This document shows positions 1,409-33,699 of a DNA stretch of 64,000 nt, one piece after another. The stretch covers positions 124,001 to 188,000 of the forward strand of contig QPGO01000133.1 in the NCBI GenBank assembly GCA_008632985.1. The letters run 5' to 3'. A model generated the notes under the pieces. It was not told where the DNA came from and ran no database searches. It saw nothing but the letters and a program-made list of their open reading frames with translations. Made by a program: the position numbers and the translations under genes. This stretch comes from Psammoneis japonica (lineage: Eukaryota). Each line of letters starts with the position of its first letter. Positions within the stretch are counted from its first letter, which is position 1.

Positions 1409-1714
1409 ATGCAAGAGTGAACGTTTCGCATTGTTTACTCCTTCGTTTCGCTAGCTTTAATTTACTTGAGGTTGACTCGTTTTCTTTGATCATGCTTTCA
1501 CTGATGTCGACTAAGGCGTTGCTGTTCTTGCAGCTTTAGCCTTGTTTCCAGAACAACAAGAACTGTGCTGCTGTGCCAAGACCAGCTTTCACAAAAGCTG
1601 TGCCGATGTCAAACTGTTGTTGTTTTTACATTGTTTTGTGTCATCGGAGAACATGAAAGTGGTCTTCAAGCAGAGTCTCAAACACTCACTTCTTCAAATG
1701 GCATGGCGTGCATC

Positions 1715-1885
1715 CCTGAACTCAGCCACGATCAGCACGAAACTCGAAGGGTCCACAAGTCATGCATTTAAAATGACTGATGAAACCTGCAGATGGCACC
1801 CCTGCCAACAACATGAGTTGAGGTAATGTGGCATTGGAAATTCCTCCAATCCCAGCAACACCCATCGGCGCCACCTCAGATTGGG
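1715..1885 (-). pseudogene. Possible Pif1/Helitron-type helicase relic
   Basis: Minus strand reads VAPMGVAGIGGISNATL (compare Pif1 motif Ia APTGVAA..I.G.TL; T->M fits ACG->ATG). About 45 codons later, in another frame, it reads VLIVAEF (compare Walker B LIVDE). Weak evidence. Confidence 0.3.
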
Positions 1886-4458: not shown

Positions 4459-4775
4459 GCACTCCATCTCATCGAGCAGCACTGGAAAAGGCTCAAATGA
4501 GTTGAGAACATTGCTGCAGCTGCACTGCCCCAGCAAAAAAAAAAACTCAGACAAAAGCTCAAAAAAAAGGTGAAGAGGAGGCTCAACTTGACAGACAAAC
4601 TTTTCTTGCTTTGGCAGCACTCCATCTAATCGAGCAGCGCTGGAAAAGGCTCAAATGAGTTGAGAAAATTGCTGCAGCTGCACTGCCCCAGCAAAAAAAA
4701 AGCTCAAACAAGAGCTTGAAAAAAGGTGAAGAGGAGGCTCAACTTGACAGACAAACTTTTCTTGCTTTGGCAGCA
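4459..4775. repeat. Tandem direct duplication, ~158-bp unit x2
   Basis: gcactccatct...ttttcttgctttggcagca starts at 4459 and again at 4617, near-identical. Confidence 0.9.
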
Positions 4776-5663
4776 GCATGCTGACAAAACTGGCACATTG
4801 AAGCAATCTGCTGTCAAGATCGCTCAACAGAAGGGGGTGGGTGCTCAAAAGCCCAGCCCGGCTCTCTTGAAAATGACTGCTCATTTCTAATGAATGAGAC
4901 AATGCCCCCCAAGCAACAGTGGCAGCTCAGCTGGAGGAGATGTTCTCAGCAAGAGTGGCGCCAATGACACAAAGTCGACACCCTGGGAGCGAGCTGTGCA
5001 GCTTTTGTTCCTTTTTTTGTTGTGGGCTGGCTGTCTCTTCCACGGCATCCACGTCTGACTGTGCTCCCTGCCAGCAATTGGAATCAGGTTAGTTGGGCTC
5101 AGGTTGAGGTGGCAGGAATGGACTGAAGCCCAAAACATGTGCAGACAGACCGCCAGTGCAACTCTCCTCATTGCAAGTGGCAACACCCAATTTCCTGGAG
5201 CAAAAGGTGAGAGAAAAAGACTTTGAAAATGTGGGGTGGACACAAATCTTTTGACACACATGGCAAATGTTGCCAAGGGGTGGGAGACTCCAATGAGACA
5301 AAGAAATTTGTTCAGGCAAATAACGACGTCTGCACAGAAGTTGCTGTCCCACAGCACGATGATTCGTCCGGGCTTGTGTTCAACGCTCGTCGTGCGTCCC
5401 GCCGCAAATTCCGTTCGTGCGTTCAACGGTCGAACTTTTTATACCGTCACTTATGTTACATAATTGTGTCGAAATAAACGGATGTCTGTCCAACATACGG
5501 CACCCGTAGACGTACAGTAACGTCGAATTTTGAAATTGTGGCGAATGCTCCTGCGGCGAAGAGCAAAGAGCTGAAGACCCACAGGAAAGGTTCGTTCACG
5601 GCATATCATCAACAACATAACAGCATCGTAACTATCAGCCCATCGCTTGAAGCAGATAGCGAC

Positions 5664-7054
5664 ATGACGAACGGGGAAAGCAGGCATAGAAATCGGATCT
5701 TGAATTGGAGTATGTTGAGGTTTGTGATTTTGATTGTTCTTTGTTTTTATTTACTATACACGAACGAAAGCCTCTTCCACTCGTTCATTCCAAAGATCAT
5801 TGGGGAACCGGAACTGGAAGCATCGCAAGGCAATTATTTGTTTGACAGAGATAAAATTCACGAAAGTGCACCATTTGAAGCAGAACTGCCAGAGGCTCTT
5901 TTACCCGTCACATTTTCCGGCTGTTGCAGTGGGCCTAAAACGGGTTGGCATGCAACATGCTTTACAGAGAAAGCGTGCAATGTTTCCTATTATCCATTTT
6001 CATCCCCAAAAGAGGCGTCTTACTTTCGAAAGTGGGAACTAAGCAGAAATGAGTCACATATATTGAGACAGAAATGCCGTGAATACGCGGAGGGAAACCG
6101 CCTCCTACACGGTGGTGTTCGTCGGAGATATTGCCGACAGACGAGAAATATCCAATGGGTTGTAGCATTATCTCCATGGGCGCTGGTTCAGGACCTTATG
6201 ACCGTGCTTTGGTATTTCCGCAAGGAAAGCTGGTATTTTGTGGGATCCCTAAAGCCGGAATCACGCAGTGGCTTCAGTTTCTGCGCTTCACTTATGGCGC
6301 GAAGGATTACTTGAGTGTGCCATATATCAAATTAGACCTTGACTATTCCAGGCTCGACGTTATGACCGAAGAAGTGAAGGACGAAATTTGGAGAGGCAAA
6401 TCGTGGACGAAGGCGATCTTTATTCGTAACCCTGCCGAACGTTTATTGTCAGGGTATCTCGACAAGATTGGTCCAGCCAATGTGACCTTCACAGAGTTCG
6501 TCGACTTTCTTGCAATGAAGAACATTACCAGACAGAATTCAACAAACGACCAATTAAAAGGCATGTACACGGGGCTGTCATGGCAAACTGATCCACACTT
6601 TAGACCACAAGCTTGGGCATGCGGATTGTCTGAGGAACTGGACACGTTTCATTACGTCGCGTCAATGGACCGTGTCGACTTCCATACGAAGGCCTTGCTG
6701 CAGCAAGTGAATATGTGGGAGTCCTTTGGAAGGCATTATCGTATGACAAGTAATGAAACAAGCTCAAAAAATGAACCATGGGCAATGTGGCCTCCTGAAG
6801 TCCAGCAACAGCAAGACGAGGAAGTAGTATTAGGTTTCCAGCAACATCAGGTTGGCGAGATTACCGACTCGGCGACAAGGCACAACACTGGTGCAACAAG
6901 CAAGATGAAAGAATATTATACTCCAGAGCTTATGAAGAGGGTGCGAGAAGTTTATTGGATGGACTTTGCTTTGTGGGATGCACTGCAAGAGGCCGACAAG
7001 GAAGGCCTTGTACACGGCAAAGACATTGCAAAGAAACTGAACCCAAATTGCTGA
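5664..7054 (+). CDS. Carbohydrate sulfotransferase, copy 2 (tandem paralog; 1-bp frameshift at ~6095)
   Basis: Collinear with 35..1408 from MTNGES to KKLNPNC. ORFs 5538..6314 and 6131..7054 join if one A is added in gggaaaccg (copy 1 has agaaaacct). Confidence 0.85.
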
Positions 7055-7199
7055 AATAGTGAACGTTCGCATTGTTTTCCCCTCGTTTCACTAGCTTTTT
7101 TTTGCTTGAGGCTGACTCGCTCTCTTTGACCATTCAATGTCTGACGCGGACTAAAGAGTTGTTCATTCTCGCACTTAGGCCTTTTTTGACAATGACAAG

Positions 7200-8860
7200 A
7201 ACTGTGCTGCTGCACTCGGACCAGCTTTCACAAAGATGTGCCGATGTCAAACTAGTTGTTGCTTCTAAATCGTTTTGCATGAGATTGGAACTTTGAGTGC
7301 ACAGTCAATGGCGGAGACACATTTTGTGTCAACCTGCAACAAATTGACACACATCCTGGTGAAACTCATCTCTTGACACAAAAAAGGAGCAATGATGTTG
7401 AGCCCCCCAGCAACCAAAAAAAAGATGTGCTCTTGCCTTCCAGCTCCTCCTTCTTCCAAGGAACCTTGACCTTCATCATTGCTTTGCCAGCAGCAAAAGA
7501 AGTGCAAACATTCAGAACTTGCCATTTCTTGATCAAATTGCAGCATTTCATCTACCCTCTTGGGCAAAAAACTTGGCTGTGAGAGCTGTTTGCCAGCACT
7601 TGTCAACTCTGAACCCTTGGGTGTGGTTTGGCTGTGCTTTCTCTCTTGCCCTAAAATGACACATCTGCCAAGCAAGTGCTGCAGCTTTCACTGACCCTTT
7701 TTGCAGCAGCACACTCAGCAACTTCAAAAAGGGTCAGATTTTTTTTGAATTTTTGAGTTTGACCTGTGTGACATGTTCTGCAGCTGCGGTGTGATTCTTT
7801 GCTGACAACAAACCCTTTCACCCAGAAACCTCTTTCTTCTCCAAGCTGCCCTTGGTTGATGCCACATCAGGCAATTTTTTGTGATGTTGGGCTTCATGCA
7901 GAACCAAGTGCTGGCTGCCATCGCTCTGTGTGTTGGCCTGTGCTGCAGATGCACACAAAAGAGAATGAATTTTTGGCAACAACACATGGTGTTTTGGCTG
8001 TGTGCACATTTTTGCCTGCATCAGACAATGGACTCTGACATTTGGTGCTGACTGGCCACCTCTCTTGCTGTCCTTGAGAGCTTGCTTTGTGACAACTCTG
8101 TGCACAGAAATGCCTCATCTGCAAGTGCGCTGATGTGAAAGTGGGTTTTGTGCATGTGATCTTGCGCACGCTGGTGTGCCCTCCCACTTGCAACACACAA
8201 GCTCATGCTTCACACTTTCGTGAGTTGCTTTCTTGTCATGTTGCAAACTTTCAAACTCAACACACAAGGAAAAAGCCCTTGTGACTGGATCCAAACGTTT
8301 GCTTGTTGACAGCAATGCCCTGTGATGAGTGAGAAGCCATGTGTGCTGCAACAGTGCTCCTGGGTCGGCACATGCAGGAGACCCAGCAGCAGCTGAAATC
8401 ACTTCTGCCACAAAGAAATGGCAAGGCTGGACTGAAAGAATCTTCTTCTCAGATGTCCAGCCGCGACTTTGTCACACCTTTTCATCTCATCATGGCTTTT
8501 TTGCCTTGCTTGAGTGTGCTCCACAAGAAAAACCAAAAGCAACGTTGCTTGCCATCCACAAACCTGTTGATGCATGTCTGACGTTTGATTGATGCACAAA
8601 GAATGAAAAAAAAACATGACAATTTGGTGGACGGACACAGGATCGTCCAAATTAGTCGCCATGGTTGCGCATGTTCAATGTGTTGGTGATAGCTCAAATG
8701 CAGATGCATTGACGCGGTGCGCAGCGCGCCGTTCACAACACCTTGCACCTTGCCGCATTCTTGCTTCGCGATGCATTCATCAATCCCTCTCGGCTATGTG
8801 CTGGGTGCAACCTGCTTGTGCGTTGCCACCATTTAGACTAAAACTGGCCAGACAGACAAC
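7200..8860. mobile_element. Degenerate TpA/CpG-depleted domain 2
   Basis: Same composition as domain 1. The right edge (8620-8860) keeps CpG but is still TA-poor. Confidence 0.6.
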
Positions 8861-11820: not shown

Positions 11821-13280
11821 CTATCCACCACGAACCCTTGGACACAAGCGCGGATTCACAATAATGTTTAGTTTTCTTCTCCGAACGGGCTTTGTGAATG
11901 GACTCGCTTCCATGGCAATACCCTGTGCAGCATTGAGTCGTTCCCCGCCACCTGCTCCAATGGCCATGAGATTTTCCTTTTCAGAATTATGATTCAATCC
12001 CAAATTGTGAGAAATTTCGTGAGCGACAACCGACGCCACGAGTTGCTGTCCCCGATCAAAGCTTAGGAGACTTGATCCAATGTACACGGCCGAGCCATTT
12101 CCCGGTGTTCGAGCAAGACCGGCAACTGTGCCGGAACTCAACTCGGAAAAGCCGGGAGCGACCCTTACAAATAACATGTTGAGGACGTTGGGATCCGAAT
12201 CCAAAAGAGGAGGACCACTTTGATTGGGAGCCAACACGAGCATTCGCTGGAGGTCACCCGTCGTTCGGCGTTCACCCTTTCTCTGGAGACCATGGTTGAC
12301 AAACGAGTTATTCCATGTTCTTGGGGTTTGTTTGAATGTGATACAGATGCAGGCCTGCTCAAAAATGGTGGAAATGTATTCCTCAATCGAGGCTCGTTGA
12401 GCAGAAGTACCAAAGGCAGTAGCAGCGTTCGAACCGTCGTAGTTGGCAACGATAATCATATTGACCGTGAGAGACAGTACACATTTACTCGAAGATAATG
12501 GCCGTGTGGGAGCACCACCTTGAGGATGGATGGGAGGTGTCAATGCATTTTTTGGACGTTGCAATGGGCATTTTCCAACTCTATTGCAGCGTGATCCATA
12601 ACCAACGAACCAACCTCCCTTGGCGCCGCACTTTTTCTTTTTCACAATACTACATCGTCCGTTCCGCCCTACGCAACACGCTCCATAAGCTATCGGCTGT
12701 GATAGTGTTAGCAAGGGTTGAACAATGTAGTTTTGAGTCTTTTGCTGTAGCATTTGAAAAGGAGATACTTTTTCTTTGTGGAACTTACGCAGAGTTCCTC
12801 GTTGCATTTACTTCCATATCCGCGAAAGACCCCGTTTAGACGCTGGCAGGTTCGTTTCTTGACAGCGATGCACTTTTTCTTTGCAGCTATACAACATGCG
12901 CCAGGCCCAGACCTTGGACAGACATTTAAATTGCATTTGGAACCGCCCTTGAACACACCTCCCCTCCTCTTGCAGCTCTTCTTACTGACCAAGAAACACT
13001 TGTTTTTCTTTTTCGGGACACAACAGGCTCCAAAATAATAGTTTTGTTGTTTTAACAAAAGTTCGCTTGAATCAGCCTATTTGGCGAGCGACAAGAAGCA
13101 GTGAGTTGCAATCCTTTGGGCTGAAACGTTTGAAAAGCATTTGATACGCTTTCTTTTACCTACCTCAACGCGTCCTGTTGGTGTCATCTCAGATTGGAGA
13201 GCCTTTCGCTGAGTACCTTGATCATGAGTAGACCGCAAAGATGAAGTGAAAGCCTTGAAGACAGAGTGTGGGCGACATGA
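11821..13280 (-). CDS. Metzincin-type Zn metalloprotease with three N-terminal GACC Cys-rich repeats, copy A
   Basis: HEISHNLGLNH followed by Met-turn ENLMA. Phase-0 GT-AG introns at 13077-13163 and 12697-12788 join the ORF pieces in frame. The start codon is uncertain. Confidence 0.8.
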
Positions 13281-14305: not shown

Positions 14306-15850
14306 CTAGCCACCGTGTACTTTTGGGCACAGGCGTGGATTGACAATGAGCTCCAGCTTTCTATTGACAGGCTCTGTGAACGGACTTGCCTCGATTGCCA
14401 CCCCTTGTTCGGCGTTGATTCGCTCCCCACGGCCTCCGACCTCCATTAGATTTTCATGCTCCATAAGGTGATTAAGCCCCTGCAAGAAGAGAGTAGCGAA
14501 AGCACACATTAGAAACGGTCAAGACCAAGCTTTGTTGTTGTACTTCTTCTTTTAGTGTGCACGTACCAGGTTGTGACAAATTTCGTGTGAGACAACGGAA
14601 GCCACAAGTTCTCGTCCCCGGTCAAATCCAAGGAGACTTGACCCAATAAACATAGCGAACCCATTACCAGGGACAAGAGCAAGACCGGCGGCTGTGTTTG
14701 TATTTAAAGCGGAAAAGCCAGGCGTAACCCTCACGAGAAACATATTCAGGACAAGTGGATTGGGATCCAGAAGTGAAGGGCCAGCTTGATTTGCTGCCAA
14801 CGAAATCATCTGTCTTAAATCTTTCGTAGATCGATAACCCCCTAGTTGTTGGGTGCCTCGGTTAGCAAAGGAGTTGTTCCATATCCTCGGAATCGCTTTG
14901 AATGTCACACATACGCAGACTTGTTCAAATGTGTCCGAAACGTAGTCCTCAATGGCGGCTCTTTGGTCTGCGGTGCCAAAGGCTGTCGCAGTGTCAGAAC
15001 CGTCGTCATTAGAAACAACAATCATATTTACTGTGACTGAAAGGCACATCCAGAAGATGGCGTGGGCGGAGCTGGGGAAGGGGGAGGGGTAGGGGCTGGG
15101 GATGGCGGGTATTTCGGAGGTGCGGCAGCGGGTCGAAGGGGGCAGTATCCGTAGCGGTCGCAACTAGAACCAGCACCAATGAACCTGCCCCCTTTCCCTC
15201 TACAGGTTTTCTCTTTAAGCACGCTGCATCTTCCGTGTTGGCCTTCGCAACAAGCTCCATATGCAATCGGCTTAGGTACCCAAAGAAAAACGTGAGACGT
15301 GAACTTCGTCTTTCAACTCGAATGGTGTTAGCGTCATGAGACTTACGCAATTTCTCTTATTGCATTTTGTTCCGAATCCATGAAATATTCCGCGTTTATT
15401 TAAACAAGTGCGTGCTTTGAGAACGACACACCTCCTTTCTCCAAACAGACAGCATGCACCGGGCTTGAAAGAGGGGCATGTGTGTGGCTCGCATTTTGAA
15501 GATCCAACAAACCGGCCTCCTCTTCTATCGCAGCTTTTCTTACTGATCAAAAGACATTTGTTATTTTTCTTTGGAACACAGCACGATCCAGAACTATAGA
15601 TATTCTGCATTTCTACTGCGTCTGCTGCTAGCTATCAATGTCGAAACCAAAAAGCACGATGAGAAGCACGGCGAAACACTGGCGCATGACAAATGACGTC
15701 TTCTATTGACCTACCTCGACACCATCCTTCGGCGTCATTTCAGTTTGATCCAGAGTCTCTTTTATAGCCTCAGTATGACCAGACTGCACGCATATGCCAC
15801 GAGCGAAAGGGGTGAGCAAGGGATAGGACGATCAACCTTTGTGGTATCAT
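14306..15850 (-). CDS. Metzincin-type Zn metalloprotease with GACC repeats, copy B
   Basis: Paralog of copy A. Introns at 15632-15714, 15271-15346 and 14480-14566 (HEICHNL|GLNH). Two 1-bp frameshifts (~15822, ~15043). Putative signal peptide MIPQRLIVLSLLTPFARG. Confidence 0.75.
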
Positions 15851-19909: not shown

Positions 19910-20749
19910 ATGCCCGGCAACTTTGACACAGACATTGACCAGGTCGTCCAAGAAAACAATACAAACATGGACGATGCGCAACCTCGGCCAACACGAAGAC
20001 AAGAACGACGACTCACAGGCGGTATTGCGACAGGTATGGAACAAATCCGCCTTCCTAGTCACGGAACACTCCTTGACGACGACGACGATAGTGATGAGGA
20101 TGATTTCCTACATGATGTATTTCCACTTTCCCCAGCGGGACATAGATCCATATGGGATCCTTGGAACGCAACCTCACTAATGCCACCAGACCGCCGCCTT
20201 CAATTGCAAAGAAGAAGAACGATTGCTTCAATGAATGACATTACGAATAGCGTTTCTCAGAGAGTAACTATTGATCGTACGCCGAGCTTGTTTCTCGGTA
20301 CTTTGAAAGAAATCGATGAGAACAGCGACTCAAGAACAGTGACAACGACATCCGAAATGAGCATGGACAAATCATTACCTGTACATGATGATGCTTCTAC
20401 TGTGTTGTGTGAGGGACTCGTATGGACGAGGAAAAGGAACGCGATATTTACCAACGCAAAGCTAAGCCGTCGATACTTTGTTTTGGAGTCCAATGGAAGT
20501 CTTACCATTTACAAAATCCCAAAGTCTGTCCATGGCAACGTCACTGCCAACTACTACAAGGTTCCAGAACTTGTCGAAAAAACTAGAATCGTCAAGAAGA
20601 TTTCCGCATCCTCTGTGAATATGGGTGATCAGTACAAGGGTCTTGTATTTCAAGACAAGGACGGACACGAAAAACTTTTCTTTGTGAGATCAAAAACTAC
20701 AAGAAAGAAATGGCTCCAATCAAACGAGCGCCTTTCTGGGCCACTCTAA
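19910..20749 (+). CDS. PH-domain protein
   Basis: C-terminal VLCEGLVWTRKRN...RRYFVLESNGSLTIYK...RKKWLQS fits a PH fold; the N-terminus is disordered. Confidence 0.7.
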   Translation: MPGNFDTDIDQVVQENNTNMDDAQPRPTRRQERRLTGGIATGMEQIRLPSHGTLLDDDDDSDEDDFLHDVFPLSPAGHRSIWDPWNATSLMPPDRRLQLQRRRTIASMNDITNSVSQRVTIDRTPSLFLGTLKEIDENSDSRTVTTTSEMSMDKSLPVHDDASTVLCEGLVWTRKRNAIFTNAKLSRRYFVLESNGSLTIYKIPKSVHGNVTANYYKVPELVEKTRIVKKISASSVNMGDQYKGLVFQDKDGHEKLFFVRSKTTRKKWLQSNERLSGPL

Positions 20750-20899
20750 TTTCGAAGAGGAAGCGGCCGTTGGAATGGCATCCTTTTAGAGCAATTGTGC
20801 TATCATTTGGCTTGCGTATTCTATATAGACCTTAATCTCTTTTCTTTATTGCTTTTGACATAACACCTCTACTTAGTACGGTGCTGTTTTTTAAAATAG

Positions 20900-21860
20900 A
20901 AAATTAAGAGAGCCTATGTAGAGCGGAAGGGAACAGCAGAGGGAGGCACGGAGGTAGCTGTAGTGACGGTAGAGTAGAAGGGCCGAAGGACACAGGACGA
21001 AGGGCGTTTAGAGGAAGGTATAGGTGAGGAGGGAGCAGGGAGGGAGGAAGTGAATCGGAGGATGTGCGTAGAAAGGTGTAGAACGACGTTGTAGCGAAGG
21101 GTTTGGGTGGCCCGCTGGGATGGGGAGGCTGTACGGCAGGTGCTCCCAAAGCGATCGGCGGACAGGCGACGCCATGCGAAGTCAGCGGACGGAAGGATTG
21201 CAGACGGAGACGACAAAGCATAGAGGAAGGCGGAGTAGGAGGCAACGGAGTGACGAAAGTCAGGGGAAGAGGACCAGGGCGGCTTGGGCTGAGAGCAGAT
21301 GGAAGAAGATGTGGGGCCAAAGAGCAAGCGGTGAGCAAAGCAGCCGAGGCCACCAAGGTGATCGACGGTGAAGGGGAGCAGGAAGATGCCATCGTTGTCA
21401 AGCGAAGAAACAACAAGGATCCATCAGTGGAGGAAGCAGAGGGGCCAAGGAACTTCAATCTCATGCTCGAGTGGTGTGCCTCAGTTGAAATGGGAGAAGA
21501 GGGAGCAGGCAGACCTGGAGGAGGGCGAGAAGGAGCTTGAGGGACAGCAACGTCCACTGCAATGTGATGATGACGGAAAGGAGCAGAAAGGGAGGCAGGA
21601 GGGGGAACTGAAATGCCGACATCGGCGGGACGGAGAAGCGGGCGGGTGGGGAGCAGGTTGGCAGGCTGGAGGTGAACTTCATGGGGGAGCGACAGAATTT
21701 TGCAAGGGGTCCCAGGGTTTGGGCTGGGATGAAAACAGCATCGCGGAGACCATTAGAAAGCTTGGGCTTGTGGGCACGGCGGCAAGAAAAGGCATGGTCA
21801 TTTTTGGCTTCTGCTCACCAGCACAGTGGAGTGAGGGACATTCGATCGCGATGGTCAATC
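20900..21860 (-). mobile_element. 5'-truncated non-LTR retrotransposon relic, RLE type (CRE/Ambal-like), element 1
   Basis: Minus-strand translation DHAFSC..HKPKLSNGLRD...LRPADVGI...AVDVAVP...LLPFTVDHLGGLG matches a Zn-knuckle end plus PD-(D/E)xK restriction-like endonuclease. Frameshifted, with strong purine/pyrimidine strand skew. Confidence 0.75.
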
Positions 21861-22071
21861 ATTTATGCGCTGGTAACAAATTTTAGTAGGATTCTACATA
21901 CTTGCTCCGTTAGTACAATCCCACTGAACACGCGGGTTGAAGTGAAGTTGCTCGCGTTTTCACGTGCTTTTTCTTGTCTGTGCAGGAAAGATCCCGTGCT
22001 GGTCTCATTCTTATGGCCTTGTGTCATGTTGTTGTTGTTGTGGTAATCGCAATAGAGAGCAACGCAACACC

Positions 22072-22755
22072 ATGGCTGATCCAGAAGGAGTTTTACCGCA
22101 AGACAATGAGCCACGCTTGCTTCAAGATCGCAAGGTCTCAAAAGGTATGGCGGATGGAATTGCTCAGCCTTCGCTACCTTCACGCAAGGCTTCCACCCAG
22201 CCAGAATCAGTGACGGGAGATCGACGTCCCTCGGCTGGTGTAGCTCTGTCTCTGGCACCGCCGTCGCGTAAGATATCTCCTCCTGTTCGTGGTAATACGG
22301 TTGAGACGGCCTCGTCCTTGGAAGACGTGCCGCTTCCGGAAGAAGAAGAAGAAGCGCCGATTCCCCAAGATGCTGCTTTTCCTACTACGGCAGACATGGC
22401 CAATTGCGTCCTGTGCGAAGGATATGCGACTGACCAAGATGTCGCTACAACGAAAAAGCCATGGATTCGTCTTATAGAACGTCTGCACCCGGACAGTGCA
22501 GACAATGGCAGATACTATCTGGTGCTCTTGTACAACGGCACCCTCTTGTTCTTTCGCAGCGACGAGGATCGCATCAATCACCAGAATCTCATCAAGGTTC
22601 GGACAGTTCAAGATATTACTCAAGGGCGCGAAGATTCACTAGTCTTTTCTCAACTTCATGGAAAAAAGTCATCCAACAAGATGTACAACATTGAGTCTTC
22701 CCAAGACATGTCCCGTTGGATTGATGCGTCAGAATCGATGTTACCCAAGCAGTAA
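22072..22755 (+). CDS. PH-domain protein (distant paralog of 19910..20749)
   Basis: VLCEGYATD...RYYLVLLYNGTLLFFRS...MSRWIDAS. Confidence 0.7.
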   Translation: MADPEGVLPQDNEPRLLQDRKVSKGMADGIAQPSLPSRKASTQPESVTGDRRPSAGVALSLAPPSRKISPPVRGNTVETASSLEDVPLPEEEEEAPIPQDAAFPTTADMANCVLCEGYATDQDVATTKKPWIRLIERLHPDSADNGRYYLVLLYNGTLLFFRSDEDRINHQNLIKVRTVQDITQGREDSLVFSQLHGKKSSNKMYNIESSQDMSRWIDASESMLPKQ

Positions 22756-22999
22756 TAGCCGAGTGAATAGGCTCTATAGCACTCGAGATGTGTGGTTGCT
22801 CGTCACTCTGTACACGATTTTTTGACACCACTGATTGTCCATGTTCAGATGTTGTACTGTAGTAAAATTTAGGAGTTGAATCAAAAAACAAGAAAACGTA
22901 CCGTAGCTTCTCGACACGACGATCTGGTCGAAAATTGCCTCCATCAAGCTTTCGAAAATGTTACTGTAAGCAAAAACATGGGTAGAGGAAGATCAGAAT

Positions 23000-25900
23000 G
23001 GACGGTTGGCAAGTTGGCTGGCTGGTCTTATGGAAGGTTCTCTTGGTGACGATGCCTTTTCTGTGCTGAAATCATTGAGAACAACTGAGAGTGCGGCCCT
23101 GTCAGAGCAGCGCAACAAGAAAAGAAATGGACAAAATTTAATGTCATGGAAGGCGGTTTGCCCAGGTGAAAACACTCTCTGATTTTGTTGTGGCACATGG
23201 CACCACTCTGGTGCTTTGTCTCAGTCAGGCAGCAGCAGGGTGGCTTTCTTCTTTGGCCATTGTCGCGCATTTTGTGCATCATTGCATCTAAAACATGGTG
23301 ACAATGCAGAGAGTCCCAAGCCACTTGCTCTTTTTGCAGTTGGCTTGCAGAGTGACCAAAACCCTTTTGGGTGGTGTCTTGAGCTTGCTGCTCTCTTTTC
23401 GGTGCATCTGGGAGAGTGAAGTCATTGTGCCATTTTCTTTGCAGTGCAAGAAATTCTGCACCCAACACCTCAAAAAATTCTCTCCCAGCACCTTCCACAT
23501 GGTGTCCAGCAAGACAGGTTGTGTGCTTGCATGCATGGAGATTTTTGCATGCAATGTGAAGTGCCCGCAGCAAACCACAAATGAAAAAAAGATTTTGAAG
23601 AGACCCAGGGGGGCACAGGTTTGCCGTGGCTTCTTGTGGGGCGCTTTTGTCCAGCCAAGCACTCACAAGGGTTGCTTCACACCCCTTGATGCCTTTCATT
23701 GCACCCAATTCTGCCTGCTCAGGATCTGCTTTCATCACATGTTTGTGGGTCATGCAGGTCTTTGGCATGCAAGGCCAGCTGTGCGCCAGCCTTGCACTGC
23801 CACCCCAAGTGTTGTCAACCATGCATGCTTTGGACATTGCATGCTTGCTTGGCACCTTTGTTTGAGTGAATGAGGGCATGTCTGCTGTTGCTGCATGTGC
23901 AACGTCAATGCTCTTTGACTTGCAGTGATGACTCTGGGAGATTGGCAGCTGCCCCTTTGTCACAGAGTCAACCCAAAGATGGCATTTGGGGCTGGAAATG
24001 TTGTTGCATTTGGGTGGTTGTGTTTTTTGTTGAACACTCCAGTTGAAACACTGTGGCGGGAGAGCAGCACACAGCCAGCAGAGAGCAAGTGCAAGTTTTT
24101 GCACTGGTTTAAAATCATGGTTGGCTGCAAACCACACACTCGTCTGTTGGTGGGTGTGTGCATGTTTGCATCCAGTGCCAGACCCATGGTGCAAACATCC
24201 AGCTGCAAAATGGCTCACCAGCAACCTTTTCATGAGCATCAGCTGCTGGCACCAATTTGCCAAGCAAGCACTGCACATGGGCATGATGTTGCAGGCAGCT
24301 GCTTTCAAAGTGCTTTTTTGATGTGTGCGCACTTCCAAGTTTGGGGGGAGGAAGTGCTCCTCCAGCTCCAACTGGCACAATGTCCACAATTAAAAACAGA
24401 ACAAAATGTGGGCAAGTTTTGACAAGAGCACCAGCCTTGCTGTCTCTGCTGCGCTATGTTGCTGCCATTGTTTTCAAAAATGTTGGAGCTCACAGACAAT
24501 TGCTGGTGGCATCAGCACATCAGTTGGCACTGGATCCATCAGAGGCCCAAATCTGTGAATCCTCCCACCGGCAGACAACCAGACCCCAGTCTGCCCAAAA
24601 ACATGTGTGAGTGCAAGCATGCAAATTTGTTCATGACAAATCAGTCTGATTTGGCACAAATCACACCTGCTCATGACAAACTGCAGGTGTGATTTGCAAA
24701 CAACAAATGTCAAAGTTTGCAAGTCAAGATCTTGTCAACCCATGGTGAAATTTAACATGTGCTTGTGCCCACACAAAATGTTCAGCTGAACAGCAGTTGT
24801 CCAAAGTGCATCTTCTGTGATGGAGCACTGCCATGGAATCTCACATTGAACAATGAAAAATTCCAAATCTTTCAACTGACCAAGTCACTCACTTCTTGTG
24901 ATGTCTCGTTTAACTTGATCACCACCACGGATGTGAATGATGACACAAGTGCAGTTGTCTGGTGGTCTTGCAACTTCTGCACATCATCTGCAAAGAGAGT
25001 CGCCACTGGAGGCAATTCTTCTGCACACTCCCTGTGCTGCACTGTGATTGGTCTGAAGAAGCAGCCTTTTTTTCATTGCCAGCAGATTCTTCAGAAACAC
25101 TGGAAGAGGGGCCTGTGTTTGCTCGTTGTTTTTTGTTTCATGTGTTTGCCTGCGCTTGCTGTGGTGGCACTGCTTTGTGTGTCATTGCCTGCCCCCCCCC
25201 CCCCCCCCTTTTTTTTGTGCCTCTGTGTCATTGGAAATGGCAAAGCTGCTGACGTCAGTTTTGTGCCATGCTCAACATCAATTCCCCAGCAAAACTTGCA
25301 GGGAAATTTGTCTTTGCACAATGTGCTTGTTTGATCTGGGTGTTTTGTGCCAAGCGCAAGTGTGGTGCTGAGAAAAGCTTCTTCTTTGACATGGTCTTTC
25401 ACCTTGATGATGTCTCTGCCAGCCTTTGATCATCGGCCATCTGCTTCCTCAGATTGGTCTGTCTCTGAGCCACAGTCAGCACAACATTTGCTCTTTTTTT
25501 GCATCATGTGTTTGCCTGCACTTGCCATGGTGGTGCTGCTTTGCATGCCGTTGCATGCTGCCCCCCCCCCCCCCCCCCTTTTGTGTTTTCTCTTGACTTG
25601 AAAAAGTGGCATGGACTCAAAATTGCACCCCTGAGTTTCAAAAACATTTCAACTGTTTGTGACTGCATGTGTGAATGATGACACAAATGGAATTGTCTGT
25701 GGTTGTTTCACCTTCTGTGTGTCATCTGCGTGGAGAGTCACCCCACAAGAGGCGGCTCTTTGGCGCTTCCTGTGCTGCACCATGATTGGTCACAAGAAGA
25801 GGCCTCTTCCTCATTGCCAGCAGCTTCTTCAAAATCACTGGAAGGGAGACCTGCTGATGCTTGTTCCCACATGCTGCCATTTTCTTGAGCCAAGTCAAAA

Positions 25901-27850
25901 GAGAGTTGTCATGGCAGTCGGGAGATTTCTCCACACTGCCTGTGGGGGGTGGGTGCACAAATCTCACCCTCTGTCAACAATCTGTCAAAACAAAGAAAGC
26001 AAAAATGGTGGGGTGAAATTCATGCAGAAGTCTTGTGGAGAGGAAAAAAATGGCAACAGAAGCCACTTCACACAATGGACCCAACTGAGTTGTGGGAGCT
26101 CACCCACTGTTGACATTGCTTTGACTTTGCCAAAGCCAGAAAAAGTTGACAGACAGAAAATTTGCACAAAAAAACATCACACAGAGGACAAACAAATTGC
26201 AGTGCAAGTTGCTTCACATGATGAACCAAGAGGATTTGTGGCTGCCTTGCTGCGGGCATTGCCCCAACAAGCAAGCATGTCAACATCCAACGTGAAAGCA
26301 CCAAGTGCAAAAATTTCATTGACACCTTTGACAAACTCCCAAACAGAAATGTCTGTGGCAACAATTGGGTGGTGCAGCTGCACAGATTTGAGAATGAGAA
26401 AACCGTGCAAGACTGGCACCGCTGTTGTTGCACCATGGCTGGCCAAGCTGGCAACTTGGAAACTCAGCAACAAAAACAGTTTGCAGCCAGTTGAGCAAAA
26501 TGAGAAATGGCTTGCACTTGCACGCAAATGGCAAGGTTTCATTGTTGTTGCTTGCACACATGTGTTGGAGGCAGATCAGATTGAAATGCACTGCCCAAAG
26601 CAGAAAAAGACTTGCCGTGCTTCCCATGCATGAAAAGAAACAGCAGCCAGCTTGTCTTTGTGGCCACTTTTCCATGTCTCTGGAAGCAGATCCAAGGCAA
26701 ATTTGGTCATGGGGCAAATGCCAATGAGCAAACATGCACTCCAATCAGAGATGGGCCTGCACAACAAATGTTTGAGAGTGCGCTCACCTGGCCAAAGTGC
26801 CGAATGATGCCCTGCGACTCAGCACACACCCTTTCTTGCCTCTCTGATGTCACCCACTTCTCCAAAGCCAGATTTTTGACAATGCTGCATCCAACACAAT
26901 TGCCTGAAACCTTTTGACTCTGTTGGCCAATTGTGCACCACCCTGACAGTTGCCAAGGCAGCAAAGCTGTTGTTGCGTCTTTCCAACAAAAGGTGTGGGG
27001 ACTTTGAGACATGCTGTGAGCCAGGGTTGGCACCCCTTTGAACAAAACAACAGCTTTGTTCACACAATGCACAAGTGCACCAGTTGGACAGAAGGTGCTG
27101 CCCCACCAAAGGAGAAGGGAAGATCTGAGAGAAAGTGCAGCTGAAGAGATCAATCTTGTGCTCACAAAGCTGCTGCTGCGCAGCACCACATGCGCTTGCC
27201 CAAGTTTTCTGCACAAGAGAAGTGGTGCTCTGTGTCTCCAAATCTGACTCAAAAACAAAACATGGAAAATTCCACCTCAAGTGCCCAGAGTGCAGGAGGT
27301 CAAGGAGGAGCTGCTCTTGCCTGCAGTGTGCGCCACCATGCCAATCTGTCATTTTTCTGGTGCAGCTGCATGTTGCAGCACATCACATCTCATCCTCTTT
27401 TTAAATCAAATGTCTTCACTGTTTGCAGCAATCTGTGCTTGCTGCTTGCCCTGATGCTGATGCTGCCTGGCACTGGGGGGCTGTGGCAGCGCTGCTTCGC
27501 ACAGCTCCTTTGTGTGAGTGTGGGAGCACTCTGTGGCGGCGCAGCTGTGCGCTGCTGAGCTCTCATTTTGCAACAAATGCAGGTGTCAAGTGTGAGACAC
27601 AATGGTGCACACACAAAGAGCTCAAGCAAAGGTCAGTGTGTGGTGCCAAAAGTGCCACCCCCCCTCTCTCAAATGCCGCGTTTTGGCAGCTTGTTTGATT
27701 TTCAAAAAAGGCTGGTGGCACTGCCACAGCTTTTGCATGGAATTTCAGTGTTTTTCTGCAGCATGAAAAAGGATTTTCATTGGACTTTGTGGACACATGT
27801 CAACCATCTGCTGTGTCTGCCAAATGCCACAAAGTCCACAGCTGCCAGCT
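23000..27850. mobile_element. Degenerate TpA/CpG-depleted domain with internal diverged repeats
   Basis: By-eye count for 23221-23820: 1 TA and about 7 CG in 600 bp. Tyr-free spurious ORFs up to 453 aa. Confidence 0.7.
24915..25870. repeat. Two pairs of diverged direct repeats with poly-C tracts
   Basis: About 24930-25130 matches about 25670-25865. About 25138-25225 matches about 25504-25595, each ending in a long C run. Confidence 0.8.
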
Positions 27851-29330
27851 CAGAGAGTGTGCTTTAAGTGAGAACCAGATGTTTGTGGGGTCGGCAGTTG
27901 TGGTGTTGGGGAAATGGGTGGCGGAGGGAGCGTGCGGAGCGCGCTGGGAGAGGGAGAGAAAAAGGGTTGGCCGAGGGTGCGGACGGATGGTCGGGAGGAG
28001 GAGTTGGTGACGGAGGGATGGCGGAGGAGGAAAGCTTGATGTGCAGAGAGATGGTTGGAGAGAGCAAAGCCAAAGTCAAGGCTGAGGGTTTGGGAAGCCC
28101 AAAGCAGGGGTGTGGCAGCATGGCAGGAGGAGCCGAAGTGGGCGGGGGAAAGTTGTTTCCAGGCCGCGTTAGATTGGGTGAGGAGGTTGGAAGGAGCTAA
28201 AAGGGAGTTGGTGAAGGCAGAGAAGGATGCTTGAGAGTTAGAGAAAGAGGATGGATGGGGCCAGGGTGGTTTGGGGGGGAGGGGGGGGGGCAGAGGAGGA
28301 GGTGGTGGTGGAGGCACCAAAAAAGAAAAGATGGAAGTGGCATCCGATGCCTCCCAGGTGATTGAAGGCAAAAGGGAGGAGGAAGAGGCCTGCTTGGTTG
28401 ATGGCGTTGATGATGTCAGAACCGTGGGCGGAGGATGTAGAGCGGCCGAGGAGCTTGTCCCGAGTGCTGCTGAGGTGAGCCTTGCCAAGTGGGTTTTCAG
28501 GGACAGGCAAACCAGGTGCAGGAGGCGGGGGAGCGGGCGGCACGGTGACATCAATTGCCATGAATTGATGGGTGGATGGGGCGTCTGGTGGTGTGAAGCC
28601 GGGGGTGAGTTGGGCGCCAACGTCGGCGGGGGCATTTTAAAGGGTGGTCGGGTGGGAGTCCAACAGGGTCAAGGTAGACTTGTTGGCGGGATCGGCAGAG
28701 GCCGCACAGAGGACCAAGGGTCTCGATGATTGTGTGGGCCGTGTCGCGGATGTGGTTGGATGGGGGGCCTTTGTGCATTTTGGAGCAAGCAAAGGCGTGA
28801 TCGCCGCATGGGTCGGGGCGGGCATGACCACATGGGCAGTTGTGTTGGGAGAGGTTGGGTGGGATGATGGGGAGACGGAGCTTGTGCAAGAGGAGGATCG
28901 TGAAAAGATGGGGCGGAAGGCGATTGGAGGGTGGGGGATGCGGGATGGGGAGTGAAGGCATGGGCTTGTGAGGGGCGACAGCAGGGATGGGAGTGTCGGT
29001 TGGATGGAAGGATCGGCGAGGATTAAGGGGAGGGTGTGGTGTGTGTGATGGTGCAGGTGGAGGCGCTGTGAGAGACTGCGCAGGTTGTGGCATTCGACAG
29101 CGTGCGAAAGGGAGGCAAAAGAGGGGGAGTCGAGCTTGAGAAGGGTGGGAGCGCAGTGGCGGAAGATTTGGCAGAGGGAGAGGGTGGAGCGGGGGTTGGA
29201 CCATGAACCGAGAGTGGAAGAGCGGCTTGAGGGAAGGTGGAAGATGGCGCCACCGGTTAGTGGGATGCCATGTTTGGTGTAGCGGATGGAGCGGAGGAGC
29301 ACATCCAGCTCGATCCCCACAGAACTATTT
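27850..29330 (-). mobile_element. 5'-truncated RLE-type non-LTR retrotransposon relic (CRE/Ambal-like), element 2
   Basis: KLRLPI...CPCGHARPDPCGDHAFACSKMHKGPPSNHIRD (CCHC knuckle), then PADVG, AIDVTVP and LLPFAFNHLGGIG. Homologous to element 1, with several frameshifts. Confidence 0.8.
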
Positions 29331-30065
29331 TTTCAATCTTGACGGGCAGGTGACTGCTCATTTCAAGGAACTTAAGACACACAAACAGACACACGCGGCG
29401 CGATGATTGCGCTCGCGGAATCGATAGTGCCAAATTCACTGTACAATCCTACATACGTAAAATTCAATAGTCATTTCTCTTAGAAACTGTCACGACTGAG
29501 AAAAATGGCGGGAAAATGAGAGCATGTCAAGCCTGCCAATCATCTGTCTTTGGCCAATCAAATCGTCTCAATTTCAAATCCATCCAATCAAATTGATTCC
29601 TGTTCGAATTCATGGTCGCGCTTTCAATAATTCTCGTTCCATTACTGCATCTACGATCATAACGTTGTATCGTAGACTCCAGTACAAATCGCCGTGCAAG
29701 TTCATCGTTCCCGCCCTTTTGGCTGGGTGTTCGCATCGCCATCTGCTTCAATTCACTCCGAACGAAAGAACACCACAAAAATCGCAAGATCGGTGACGTG
29801 TAGTACTTCTTTCTACATACGACGAGGGAGAGAAACGAGAAAGGTGAGACCAATCAACCTTGCTTTCTCACAACGAGCCAAGAAAGGTCAACAAGAGAGC
29901 TTTTCTTTCTCATTGTCAAGTGAGAGAAAGGTAACAGACTCAACAAGTGCTTCATCGATTCGATCGATTGTAGCAACGCACAACCAGTAGTTATTTCCTT
30001 ACTGTTTATCAATCGTGATTGCCTGAGCAGTAATCGCCTCTCTCACTCTCGAAGAAAAACAAAAC

Positions 30066-30755
30066 ATGAAGATTCTTACCATTAGCATTCCTTCGACAAG
30101 TATTATGGAACCAAGCAAAGCATCCGTGGACATTGTGGAATCTACTTCTTCTTCTCCACAGCATTTACCTCCAGACCTCGTGTCGACGTCCTCGTGCAGT
30201 GCCATCGATGACAACATTTCGGATATTTCCGAAGTCGACGCACGAGAACTCCTTCAAGAGCAGGATGAGAACAATGACGTTGAAGAAGACGAAGACGTAG
30301 AGATGAGGCCCAAGTCACCAAGATCCATCTTTTCAGATCACTGGTCCAGATCAGGGACAGAGCCCATTTCACTCAAGCACGCCAAGGAGCTCAAGAGAAC
30401 CGTCACGCTTCCTGCAGACTGGAAGCTCGACGATCATGACCAAGACGATCAAGCAGAGGAATCCGACGATGATACGGCCAAGCTCTACGAACGATCCATT
30501 TCGCAATCCGAAGACAAGTTGTTTCCCAATGCTTCGCTTCCGACATTACGGCCTCGGTCGTCACTGTCGTCGCTTGTCGTGCGAGCGTCCACGAGTGACT
30601 TGCTTCGCCCCAAGAAACTCAGCTCGTGCTTCAAGACGACGGCCACGTCCAACAAGAATCACGTGAAATTTGCTCCCAATGTTGACATTTTAGAATACAA
30701 GGAGGTTCGAGACCTTCCTAGTACCAATGAAGGATGGTCCAAGTACTTTCATTGA
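30066..30755 (+). CDS. Hypothetical disordered protein with RVxF-like motif
   Basis: 229-aa Ser/acidic ORF ending LSSCFK...HVKFAPNVDILEY...GWSKYFH. Confidence 0.7.
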   Translation: MKILTISIPSTSIMEPSKASVDIVESTSSSPQHLPPDLVSTSSCSAIDDNISDISEVDARELLQEQDENNDVEEDEDVEMRPKSPRSIFSDHWSRSGTEPISLKHAKELKRTVTLPADWKLDDHDQDDQAEESDDDTAKLYERSISQSEDKLFPNASLPTLRPRSSLSSLVVRASTSDLLRPKKLSSCFKTTATSNKNHVKFAPNVDILEYKEVRDLPSTNEGWSKYFH

Positions 30756-31209
30756 GGCATTTTTTGCTCGAAGCAATTTTTAATACTACTGCATACAGCC
30801 TAACATTTTGGGTATAAACAAGCTACTAAATTACATACACTTTTTTTAATCTACTCCTCTCTACCTTATGTTATCTCGTTGTAAACCTAGAACAATGGCA
30901 TTCGATGCCGTTCGAAAGCAAGCGCAATGGGCGTCAACAGACATCTGTCTGGCGACGGGGATTTATGCCGAAAGCGAATCTTCCCGTATCTCTCGGAGAA
31001 TCATGTCACTATGTAGAATCTTCAATACCCAATAATGGTAATTACCGTTGAATGGTTCTTTCTGCAACCCATGACGTCGACTGCATTAAAACAAAGACAT
31101 TATGCGAACCCAAAGGACATTCTTCGGGTTCGCAATGCCAACTTCGCTGAAGCGTGGTGACACGAACGGTTAAAACACGGAGCGGGTCATCATAATCCTA
31201 TGTATTATT

Positions 31210-32450
31210 GGCGTGTGTCCTTCAAGCTCAAGGGCAAGAAGCGCAGCGAGCCGAACCGAGCCGCAGCCACACGCAAGGTCATCATCCGATTTCAATCTTT
31301 CCAGTCGGTGTCGGTCGCCACATCATGTTCCTGCTCTCTCTCCTCCTCGTTCTCTTCCTCACCAGATGAGCCATCTGTGTGTGGTGTGTGTGTGTGTGTG
31401 TGNNNNNNNNNNNGGGGGGGGGCAATCAGCCTCTTTGGATGCCGCCACATGTCGTCCGAAGTGTGGCGTCCTCTTCGCTGCCATGAAACACCTTGAGTGT
31501 GTTTGCAGCAGCACACGAGGCACCAATCCACACTGTTGCCTTGGCTTGTTGTGAGGACCTTAACAGGCAGTTCAAGAATTGAGAGTCTGCAAACTCGGCT
31601 GGGGGATCTTTTTCCTTTTTGAGCTCTTCTTTTCCATCGGCTGAAAATGCTTGTGACAAAGGTCACCTGTTCCAGCCCCAGGTGATGAGATTTTTGGAGC
31701 AGCTGGGCACATTGAACTCCTTTCAAAGTTGATCATTTCAAAAATCAAAAGGCGAGCATGCACAAAAAAACAAAAGTTTTGTGTGCACTGCCTCGCCCTT
31801 CGATTTGGGAAAAAAACTGACTTGAAGGCTGGCATTTGCTGCTGACACCATGGTTGTGTCATGCCAAACTTTGTTTTGCTGGGATTGTGCAGAGCAAGCT
31901 CTGATTCATGGTGCCTGAATTTGGTGGAATTGGCACACGCAACATTCCACCGTGCCCATTGCAACAGGCACAGAGACAGAAAACACTGCCATCCACAATG
32001 CAAAACTGCAGCTGAAAGGGCTGTTTTTAGAACTCTTTTTGGCTCCATGCACTCCAGCCTGAGCGGGCATTAAAAATCTAAACAGCACATCCAGATTCTG
32101 GTGAGCTCAATCTCCCTTGAAGACAAAATGGTCAAGACCACATGTCGCGCTGTTGTTCCTGCCTTGCATTGGCATGAGTTGCTCTTGCACCAAGCACTTG
32201 GCAGAAGTGGCAGCAAAGTCACCCTCACATTCAAAACAGAGGCCCATCAGCAAACCACTGGCACTCAAAACAAATTGATGCCCAACAGCACCAGAGATGT
32301 TGTCCTTCACATGTCTTGAGATCTTCAAGCCGCAGATTGTGTTCAAACTCGCATCACAGTGCAGGTTGTAATCATTGGCAATTGGGCAGATCTTGTTCCC
32401 GTCCCCACTGTTCATCATTTCATGCAAAAATTCTCTGCATGCTTTGTTGA
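31210..32450. mobile_element. Degenerate TpA-depleted domain containing a (TG)n run and an assembly gap
   Basis: TA nearly absent. (TG)n at about 31384-31402; 11 Ns at 31403-31413. Confidence 0.6.
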
Positions 32451-32680
32451 TGTACTGTACACTGCTTCAGCCTGCCGGATCTTCCTGCTCATGCACGTCG
32501 AGATATCTCGTTGCGTGTTGATTGCCTCGTCTTCACGTCAACAAACTATGGTATCGTACTAAGTTATCATAGAAGATCGTGCGTATGTATAGAATACAAT
32601 TGTCCACATTGTGTACTGAAGTGTGAACTGATATAACTTTAAATATATCAGCATCTACAACAACTAGGCTTCACCTTCGA

Positions 32681-33699
32681 TCAACTGCCTCGATACGCCA
32701 TTGCTCCTACGGCCACAACCGCGACTCCAATGGCCGCAACTATTGCCGGTGAAGGCCCTTGTTTAGTTGGGTTTGGAGGAGACGCTCCAAAGGCGGTTCC
32801 ATCCGACCAAGTTTTCTGTCTCTGTAATAACCACTGTTTGAAATCCATGGCATCGGGTACCACTTGACGAAACTCGCGCATTTCCTTGGACCAATCGGCC
32901 TTGTTGGTGGTAGTTCGACATAACTCTACCATGGCATACAGATGCTTCAACACAAACCTCAAAATGAACCGAGGTGGTGCCGCTTGGTAGACACAGTCGA
33001 CACCCGATACCTCGGACAAGACCTGGACCAGCTCGTCACCCGTGTCTCGAGAGGTGATACATGACAATGTTTTGGCCTGCCATTCTTTCGGATTACCTGC
33101 CATGACTACAGCTGCTTTGCCCACATCCCGTGTCGAGACATGATTGACTTGGACCCATCCTTCGTAGAGGTCCTTGAGGTATCCGCGAGCCAGCGGGTTG
33201 TACACGGTTGGGTCGTCAAAGTTTTCAAAAAAGAGGACGACCTCAGAATCGTATATCGATCGAGTTTTAGAGTGACAATGTATTCTTCCAATTCTTTCTG
33301 AGCCTTTAAGTGAGCTGCTTGTTCGGGTGCCACATCGGCTAGCTCTGTAGATGTCAAAATGACATGGGGTGATGGTGTGGCGCGTTGGCAAGCATCGAGA
33401 ATGAGTTTCCCTTGCTCTACTTCCTTTGTTACCGAGTTGGAAATATCGTATTTGGTAATGCTAATCACCACTTGAGGCTTGGAAATTTCCAAAGCACGTT
33501 CAATCGAATTCTTGTCGCCATATTGAAAAGGGATGGGTGTGACTCCCTTGGACAACAAGGCAGGGTGTTTCTCGTTTCGAGAGGTACCGTAAATTTGATA
33601 CTTGTTGGTAGCTGTAAAGGCATCGATAATGCCACTGCCGAGCTTTCCAGTAGCAAGGAGGACAAGGACAGAAGGTTTGTTGGACTTGTCGTTGCTCAT
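32681..33699 (-). CDS. NmrA-like atypical SDR with C-terminal TM anchor (frameshift ~33240)
   Basis: VLVLLATGKLGSGII Rossmann start, EVEQGKLILDAC, H.KAQKELEEY, YTILR..FFENF and VSTRDVGKAA are spread over two overlapping ORFs. Confidence 0.8.

Follow-up and report, generated by a model that had tools for sequence, protein, structure and literature searches.

Seven discrete islands in the genome of the diatom Psammoneis japonica have lost nearly all of their TpA dinucleotides and much of their CpG, with a matching gain of TpG and CpA. The islands lie within a 64,000-nucleotide stretch of contig QPGO01000133.1 (assembly GCA_008632985.1, positions 124,001 to 188,000 of the forward strand), hereafter called the window, and all coordinates are counted from its first letter. 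We consider it probable that these islands reflect a transition hypermutation directed at TpA and acting in place, accompanied by decay of CpG.

The initial annotation of this stretch had reported seven TpA-poor, TG/CA-rich blocks amid DNA of ordinary TA content, and both dinucleotide counts and segmentation bear this out. In sliding 500-bp windows, the observed/expected ratio (O/E) of TA drops to 0.00-0.10 within the named blocks, compared with roughly 0.4-0.9 elsewhere in the window. Taken together, the seven blocks (21.2 kb) contain 84 TA and the remaining 42.8 kb contain 1,796, corresponding to TA O/E values of 0.06 and 0.58, respectively. CG is lower in the blocks as well (O/E 0.29 vs 1.02 in the rest of the window), CA (1.75 vs 1.16) and TG (1.69 vs 1.15) are elevated, and neither AA (1.29 vs 1.16) nor TT (1.26 vs 1.18) is depleted. 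For the interval 23000-29420, which holds 21 TA, 1000 base shuffles yielded 382 +/- 15, with a minimum of 341. The longest TA-free run extends over 2,491 bp (24911-27402), at a median TA spacing of 16 bp in the window, and the single TA previously noted in 23221-23820 is found at 23289. Erasure of TA is saturated in the islands (TA O/E 0.04-0.06), at a GC content of 0.49-0.51. Six-frame translations carry the loss of Tyr and the gain of Cys and His that had been described at the outset, with Tyr at 0.09% in the blocks and 2.41% outside, Cys at 6.16% vs 3.66% and His at 4.93% vs 3.24%. Stop codons in the blocks are almost all TGA (964, next to 75 TAA and 57 TAG).

An unsupervised two-state Viterbi segmentation, for which the TA positions were the only input, returned exactly seven segments, which match the earlier block list and cover 20,613 bp, or 32% of the window. 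The flanks of these islands display a TA O/E of about 0.5-0.9, i.e., the islands are discrete domains with ordinary surroundings. Island 1 (1538-5439; TA O/E 0.058, CG O/E 0.23) consists of unassigned sequence downstream of a first sulfotransferase paralogue, and island 2 (7267-8794; 0.037 and 0.33) lies downstream of the second paralogue. Island 3 (21237-21863) retains 1 TA at a CG O/E of 0.62 and overlaps a retroelement fragment, designated fragment 2. Island 4 (23030-29257) combines a single-copy core of unassigned origin (23030-27877; TA O/E ~0.04, CG O/E ~0.18) with most of retroelement fragment 1 (27877-29398). Further downstream are island 5 (31207-32452; 0.063 and 0.42), which includes an 11-N gap at 31403-31413, island 6 (50511-55165; 0.043 and 0.26), where CG recovers from ~54416 and TA only from ~55166, and island 7 (61574-64000; 0.040 and 0.22), which continues past the window end. 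The gap in island 5 is the sole gap in the window; contigs assembled from a public sequencing run (X1, see below) end at 31370 and restart at 31423, and the reads seem to break off at a repeat that was skipped (31371-31402).

Added together, the O/E values of the four pyrimidine-purine (YR) steps come to 3.79 in the blocks and 3.91 outside, and the share of YR steps is 0.240 in the islands as compared with 0.241 outside. This unchanged sum, at falling TA and CG and rising TG and CA, indicates that transitions have redistributed TA and CG into TG and CA. Simulated erasure of TA and CG in the normal DNA of the window points the same way, as its 4-mers then correlate with those of the islands at 0.91-0.92 instead of 0.59.

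More direct information about the direction of change comes from the two retroelement fragments. Fragment 1 (27877-29398, minus strand) corresponds to the C-terminal ~500 codons of a ~1250-aa RVT_1 protein, and fragment 2 (20917-21811, minus strand) to the last ~275 codons of an RVT_1-type protein, with limits set by tblastn with 35 homologues. Both are 5'-truncated and lack the reverse-transcriptase domain itself. For the frame 28554-29324 (minus strand) we found 119 relatives, 13 of them at E<=1e-10; the long relatives match at residues ~900-1030 of ~1250-aa proteins, with RVT_1 present in 7 of 9, and the homology resides in a conserved C-terminal domain of RVT_1-bearing proteins, KLRLP..C.C..DP.GDH.F.C..K..N.IRD. 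Fragments 1 and 2 are present in high copy, with word depths of 340-1760 and 2110-4433, respectively, compared with about 60 in the flanks. As the depth climbs towards the 3' end of the fragments, we refer to them as putative non-LTR-like (lacking long terminal repeats) RVT_1 retroelements. The two are similar to each other at 58% identity (20925-21802 and 27910-28805). A weak tblastn match at 57025-57429 (plus strand, E=5e-4) to the reverse-transcriptase part of homologue P0155 (residues 405-534) was also observed; it lies outside the islands and has ordinary TA content.

When the fragments in the window are compared with the other genomic copies in run X1, 65 of 67 differences are transitions. 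Individual listings comprise 40 of the copy-to-copy variants, with 29 more not listed, and the TA and CG classes were counted among these 40. At seven listed sites the window carries TG or CA where TA accounts for 70-100% of the depth, and the reverse is seen once. CG is lost here at 14 sites and kept here at 6, and the other listed variants are 10 transitions and 2 transversions, bringing transitions to 38 of 40 overall. The same direction emerges at the protein level from 111 tblastn alignments, which are not independent, as many homologues cover each site. Tyr is the most depleted residue (2.04% in the homologues vs 0.61% in the window copies), with Y to C changes numbering 40 against 0 in reverse and Y to H changes 43 against 9, together 83 vs 9. 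Conserved columns show Arg to His, Arg to Cys and Tyr to Cys changes on CAY/TGC codons.

A search with a five-sequence alignment returned 45 metagenomic loci related to the fragments, with whole-locus TA O/E of 0.33-0.87, and of 0.48-0.87 in 43 of the 45. Even the GC-rich relatives L004, L005, L022 and L023 show TA O/E of 0.48-0.63, as opposed to 0.04-0.15 in the window copies. An intrinsic composition of the retroelement family had been named beforehand as one outcome that would speak against hypermutation, and with 43 of 45 relatives TA-normal, low TA is not intrinsic to this family. No DNA-level match between the window fragments and the 45 metagenomic loci was detected. Two loci, L006 (1-2400) and L037 (1-3300), are the only partly TA-depleted relatives, with GC of 0.6, TA O/E of 0.0-0.47 per 300 bp and moderately low CG, and in L006 TA is normal again at the element end; they may represent the same process in another source.

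The positions of the domain edges are informative about when the change took place. Fragment 2 retains 13 TA in its final 320 bp (20917-21236) and 0 in the adjoining 21237-21753, and in fragment 1 TA is back at 29258, about 140 bp short of the fragment end at 29398. The TA-normal parts of both fragments adjoin normal host DNA. Edges that fall inside the fragments rather than at their ends argue for action in place on a regional, chromatin-like domain, and not for a composition acquired before insertion or shared family-wide. Hence, TA erasure appears to act in place.

Depletion of TA and of CG overlap only in part. By segmentation, 17,138 bp are depleted of both, 3,475 bp of TA only and 308 bp of CG only. 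The CG-depleted segments are nested within TA-depleted ones, with CG O/E of 0.17-0.25 in six nested segments. In island 4, CG depletion stops at 27891, precisely where fragment 1 has its 3' end. The retroelement fragments have lost most of their TA and still display CG O/E of about 0.45-0.9; being high-copy, these fragments are presumably younger. The TA-only zones, together with the CG-keeping fragments, indicate that TA erasure is separable from CpG decay and seemingly faster. The initial annotation had postulated a second process, converting TA to TG/CA and distinct from CpG decay, and this proposal is supported by the polarised fragments, the simulation and the CpG-keeping TA-depleted zones.

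Run X1, a public run with ~60x word depth and a platform that is not on record, was compared with the window by means of k-mer contigs. It contains 88% of the sampled window words. A 3,448-nt contig (depth 61) matches 21767-25208 with 0 differences and spans the left edge of island 4, and a 2,293-nt contig matches 25620-27911 with 1 difference and 1 gap, so the island sequence is reproduced by the reads. Of the 11 bins over the island 4 core, 10 have a depth of 61-97 and one (25274-25707) reaches 186.5, with flanks at 59-61. The core is thus essentially single copy at a likeness of at least 90%, which makes the 'repeat-induced' part of the originally suggested label, reverse repeat-induced point mutation (RIP), unsuitable for the main block. 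A further run, X2, listed as 'DNA?', covers only the flanking genes in 20500-33500 at a very uneven depth (up to 2462) and resembles a transcriptome more than genomic DNA; that it leaves the island cores uncovered is not evidence.

The few TA that remain point to a sequence preference. Among the 54 survivors, 15 are TTAA and 20 are CTAA/TTAG, together 65%; in normal DNA these contexts make up 11% of TA (p=1e-8 for the TTAA excess by Fisher's test). ATAT and ATAC/GTAT have 0 survivors in the islands vs 386 such sites in normal DNA. TTAA and CTAA/TTAG, i.e., YTAR (Y, pyrimidine; R, purine), resist erasure. The survival table is fitted by an additive model in which the rate on each strand is set by one flank, favoring a purine 5' of T (A>G>>C>T) or, equivalently, a pyrimidine 3' of A (T>C>>G>A). 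A corresponding model of RTA to RCA and TAY to TGY change fits the island 4-mers with r=0.923, compared with 0.906 for uniform erasure and 0.879 for the opposite assignment, and accounts in part for the excess of the GC dinucleotide and the deficit of AT. The two outcomes, TG and CA, occur at close to 50:50 and in random order; runs tests on the two largest islands (z 0.24 and 0.32) revealed no strand-coordinated clustering of these outcomes.

Beyond the signature and the direction of change, which the data establish, we infer the following course of events. The islands would be ordinary DNA that was rewritten in place after arrival in the genome, in part derived from retroelements and for the rest of unassigned, probably foreign or mobile, origin. 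A regionally targeted transition process at the DNA level would convert TpA to TpG or CpA (A to G on either strand) almost completely, with methylated CpG on the same domains decaying more slowly to TpG/CpA. For the TpA step, we regard a process of the type that hypermutates TpA in the alga Bigelowiella natans as most likely. Its most likely chemistry would be enzymatic deamination of adenine in 5'-TA-3', best before a pyrimidine (TAY, which reads RTA on the other strand), by a putative adenine deaminase. Recruitment of this activity to silenced or foreign chromatin would then lead to permanent inactivation of invading DNA. A broader view, which strikes us as possible rather than probable, is that of an ancient base-editing defence, guided by chromatin or RNA, common to diatoms and chlorarachniophytes and extending across the SAR (stramenopile-alveolate-rhizarian) supergroup. 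It would comprise a natural adenine (or thymine) editor with RTA/TAY preference, whose targets are recently arrived or silenced DNA and whose edges are defined to within one or two nucleosomes. Its action would be faster than decay of 5-methylcytosine, saturating and irreversible, and would in this way sterilise much of the genome (32% in the case of this window).

Several observations weigh against hypermutation in place as we describe it. Neither paralogues nor homologues were found for the five large single-copy islands, and the direction of change in them is read from composition, through YR conservation and the simulation. The simulation itself reaches a GC content of 0.458 vs 0.487 in the islands and also underestimates the GC-dinucleotide excess, so either the ancestors were more TA-rich than the present flanks or something else also acts. 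At the polarised TA sites with asymmetric flanks, 2 of 6 follow the RTA to RCA rule and 4 of 6 go the opposite way, and the context rule is therefore founded on bulk composition. Lastly, run X1 possibly stems from the same sample as the assembly, at a platform that, as mentioned, is not on record.

The same signature at TpA could be left by oxidation or modification of thymine to 5-hydroxymethyluracil (5hmU) or 5-formyluracil by an enzyme of the TET/JBP type, followed by mispairing with G and T to C change on either strand, an explanation to which we assign a minor though real chance. The palindromic nature of TpA makes deamination of adenine (TAY) and modification of thymine (RTA) indistinguishable by sequence, and all sequence results, context included, fit an attack on T as well as one on A. 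In dinoflagellates, 5hmU stands in for much of the thymine, with a preference for TpA, and 5-formyluracil forms mispairs with G; we know of no thymine-modifying enzyme or modified base of this kind in diatoms. In the accessible part of their preprint, the B. natans authors favor an ADAT2-like adenine deaminase. An imported composition, in which the islands arrived already poor in TA and CG from a biased donor or virus or after mutation elsewhere and are subject to no process at this locus, would suit the fairly sharp island edges and the five large islands, for which our searches returned no relatives. It is nevertheless unlikely: seven mutually unrelated sequences share one bias, their 4-mer spectrum resembles that of host DNA after simulated erasure, the TA-domain edges lie inside the retroelement fragments, and other copies and relatives of these retroelements carry TA.

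Editing of retroelement RNA or double-stranded RNA from A to I by an ADAR- or ADAT-like enzyme, prior to reverse transcription, has very little to recommend it beyond the involvement of retroelement fragments in two islands and a shared preference for the upstream base. The mixed TG/CA outcomes without strand runs disagree with it, as do polarised changes on both element strands (5 and 2), domain edges that differ from the element ends, and a main island that is single copy and bears no retroelement signature. ADAR moreover has a 3'-G preference, and the contexts that resist erasure here include TA with a following G (TTAG/CTAA survive). The upstream preference is that of ADAR for U before the edited A, as usually observed according to the accessible text of bioRxiv 10.64898/2026.01.13.699255. 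Error-prone repair in heterochromatin by a Pol-eta-like polymerase (WA to WG, with W standing for A or T) had been put forward in the initial annotation and agrees with the A to G direction. WA includes AA, however, and since AA and TT are undepleted (1.29 and 1.26 in the blocks vs 1.16 and 1.18 outside) and the loss is TA-specific and nearly complete, this signature does not fit and the candidate is barely plausible. Least of all would we expect an artefact of sequencing or assembly on modified DNA. TA and CG are both palindromic and could bear symmetric base modifications, and the assembly platform is not on record, but over 2.3-3.4 kb, and across an island edge, the ~60x contigs agree with the islands apart from 0-1 differences, with normal flanks within the same contigs; noisy reads would not yield such contigs, and the pattern of Tyr to Cys/His change in proteins and the copy-to-copy variants form coherent biology. 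Taken together, TpA-directed transition hypermutation in place, with CpG decay on the same domains, accounts best for the data.

The initial annotation had further stated that the blocks coincide with recognisable transposon relics, which holds for 27877-29398 and 20917-21811 and does not hold for five of the seven blocks. No transposon domain was found in Pfam for any of 197 stop-to-stop open reading frames (ORFs) from the blocks, of which 47 have at least 100 aa and 150, out of a total of 170 in that class, have 55-99 aa; tblastn with the 35 retroelement proteins gave no match in the islands outside the two fragments, and protein-level searches detected no relatives of islands 1, 2, 5, 6 and 7 or of the island 4 core. 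Likewise, transition-tolerant alignment and purine/pyrimidine 30-mers revealed no homology among blocks or to host genes in the window other than the fragment pair. The near-lack of TAA and TAG in the islands leads to long spurious Cys/His-rich ORFs and thereby to false zinc-finger matches, an annotation trap in which island ORFs mislead automatic annotation. Chance Pfam zinc-finger or C1-like matches attributable to the Cys/His enrichment occur at 4190-4432, 5092-5379 and 7654-7866 (all minus strand) and at 32178-32447 (plus strand).

Within the island 4 core, a 453-codon open frame at 23031-24389 (minus strand) stands out, as chance would give about 0.01 frames of this length over all blocks, even with so few stops. 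It has no relatives in Pfam, two word-based protein searches, the ESM Atlas or a viral-contig scan, and may represent the remains of the island's original gene. The core also contains an internal duplication (24907-25127 and 25645-25865) whose copies differ by 38 transitions, 19 transversions and 5 TG-versus-CA double differences, a suggestive though small sample. A period-3 purine/pyrimidine signal was considered as a test for former coding sequence and dropped, as it proved insensitive even for real genes of the window.

The genes neighboring the islands encode sulfotransferases, a formin, uroporphyrinogen decarboxylase, a Sel1-repeat protein and a bromodomain protein. In a comparison with diatom proteins, the exon of the decarboxylase reached 83-90% identity, with Asterionellopsis, Cylindrotheca, Nitzschia and Thalassiosira among the named matches. 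Two tandem Sulfotransfer_2 duplicates (1-1640 and 5630-7280) are 86.6% identical over 1.6 kb, and each directly precedes a TA-erased island, islands 1 and 2 being mutually unalignable. Use of this duplication as a natural experiment was abandoned, as only about 100 bp of it reaches into the islands. In addition, a roughly 108-bp tandem repeat with 86-92% identity between copies is located at 60242-60803 inside the Sel1-repeat gene, and a diverged duplication (12005-12470 and 14571-15036; 69% identity over 468 bp) lies beside a metallopeptidase-like ORF.

If our reading is correct, TpA-directed hypermutation extends beyond one rhizarian alga and also shapes the genomes of diatoms, which form a major part of the phytoplankton and for which genetic tools exist. 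The implication would then be a widespread eukaryotic defence in which DNA is edited from A:T to G:C, opposite in direction to RIP and APOBEC. TA-free, CG-poor and TG/CA-rich islands would also provide a compositional marker for silenced invaders that are missed by homology. The context rules, with TTAA and CTAA/TTAG spared and ATAT and ATAC/GTAT erased, can be compared with candidate deaminases and with the B. natans mutations. What is new here is the probable extension of the recent B. natans finding to diatoms, to which we add saturation, the separability from CpG decay and the context rules.

Several known systems bear a resemblance to the process proposed here. APOBEC3 (C to U on cDNA) and ADAR (A to I on double-stranded RNA) likewise leave an enzyme-made transition signature on mobile DNA, whereas the islands lack strand-coordinated clusters and the action is apparently on chromosomal DNA in place. 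Fungal RIP requires duplicated sequence and turns CpA into TpA, so that new TpA arises and GC falls. The ascomycete process is similar to ours in being a defence-like, domain-restricted transition hypermutation that ruins coding capacity, and differs in that the islands lose TpA (O/E 0.06) and keep a GC content of ~0.49, with the main island in single copy. The tRNA adenosine deaminases TadA and ADAT act on a U33-A34 substrate, with T/U directly 5' of the edited adenine, so that a T 5' of the edited adenine would be the natural context of this enzyme family. As far as the accessible text of the respective reports goes, diatom transposons are CG-methylated via DNMT5 (PMC9998398, PMC2806351), and mutation accumulation in Phaeodactylum tricornutum displays a GC to AT bias with CG as the most mutable dinucleotide (PMC6604790). 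The loss of CG to TG/CA in the islands fits deamination of 5-methylcytosine in such a setting, although DNMT5-linked CpG decay cannot remove TpA, and CpG persists here in 3.5 kb of DNA that is depleted of TA.

The closest parallel is found in B. natans. The initial annotation knew of no description of the phenomenon in diatoms, and our literature searches found none of TpA erasure in this group, but hypermutation of TpA to TpG/CpA has been shown in this chlorarachniophyte in a mutation accumulation experiment, affecting silent integrated viral DNA (Mettrop et al., April 2026, bioRxiv 10.64898/2026.01.13.699255). According to the accessible part of that preprint, 231 out of a total of 302 de novo single-nucleotide mutations were located in two regions of integrated viral DNA, 230 of these 231 were A to G or T to C, and all 230 occurred at TpA, at a rate of about 6e-7 per site per generation, which is about 1000-fold above background. 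The B. natans genome contains 124 clusters of windows that are poor in TpA and rich in CpA+TpG. Reverse-transcriptase domains, DDE domains and genes lacking annotation are over-represented in these clusters, and the authors propose an ADAT2-like DNA adenine deaminase (bioRxiv 10.64898/2026.01.13.699255).

The islands share with this system, so far as the accessible text describes it, the TpA to TpG/CpA spectrum on both strands, the discrete domains with normal flanks, the action on single-copy DNA, and the occurrence of many unannotated TpA-poor clusters next to some with reverse-transcriptase or DDE domains. They differ in several respects. B. natans is a rhizarian and P. japonica a stramenopile; viral inserts are affected there, compared with retroelement fragments and unassigned DNA, in which no viral genes were found, here. 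The insert from a nucleocytoplasmic large DNA virus still has a Rho(TpA) of 0.45 and the virophage insert is TA-rich, as opposed to a TA O/E of 0.04-0.06 in the islands. The accessible part of the preprint mentions neither diatoms nor CpG and does not discuss flanking context, whereas CpG decay accompanies erasure here and YTAR sites resist it. Our best reading of these likenesses and differences is that the islands reflect the same kind of TpA hypermutation as in B. natans, operating in a different branch of the supergroup and seen at its end state.

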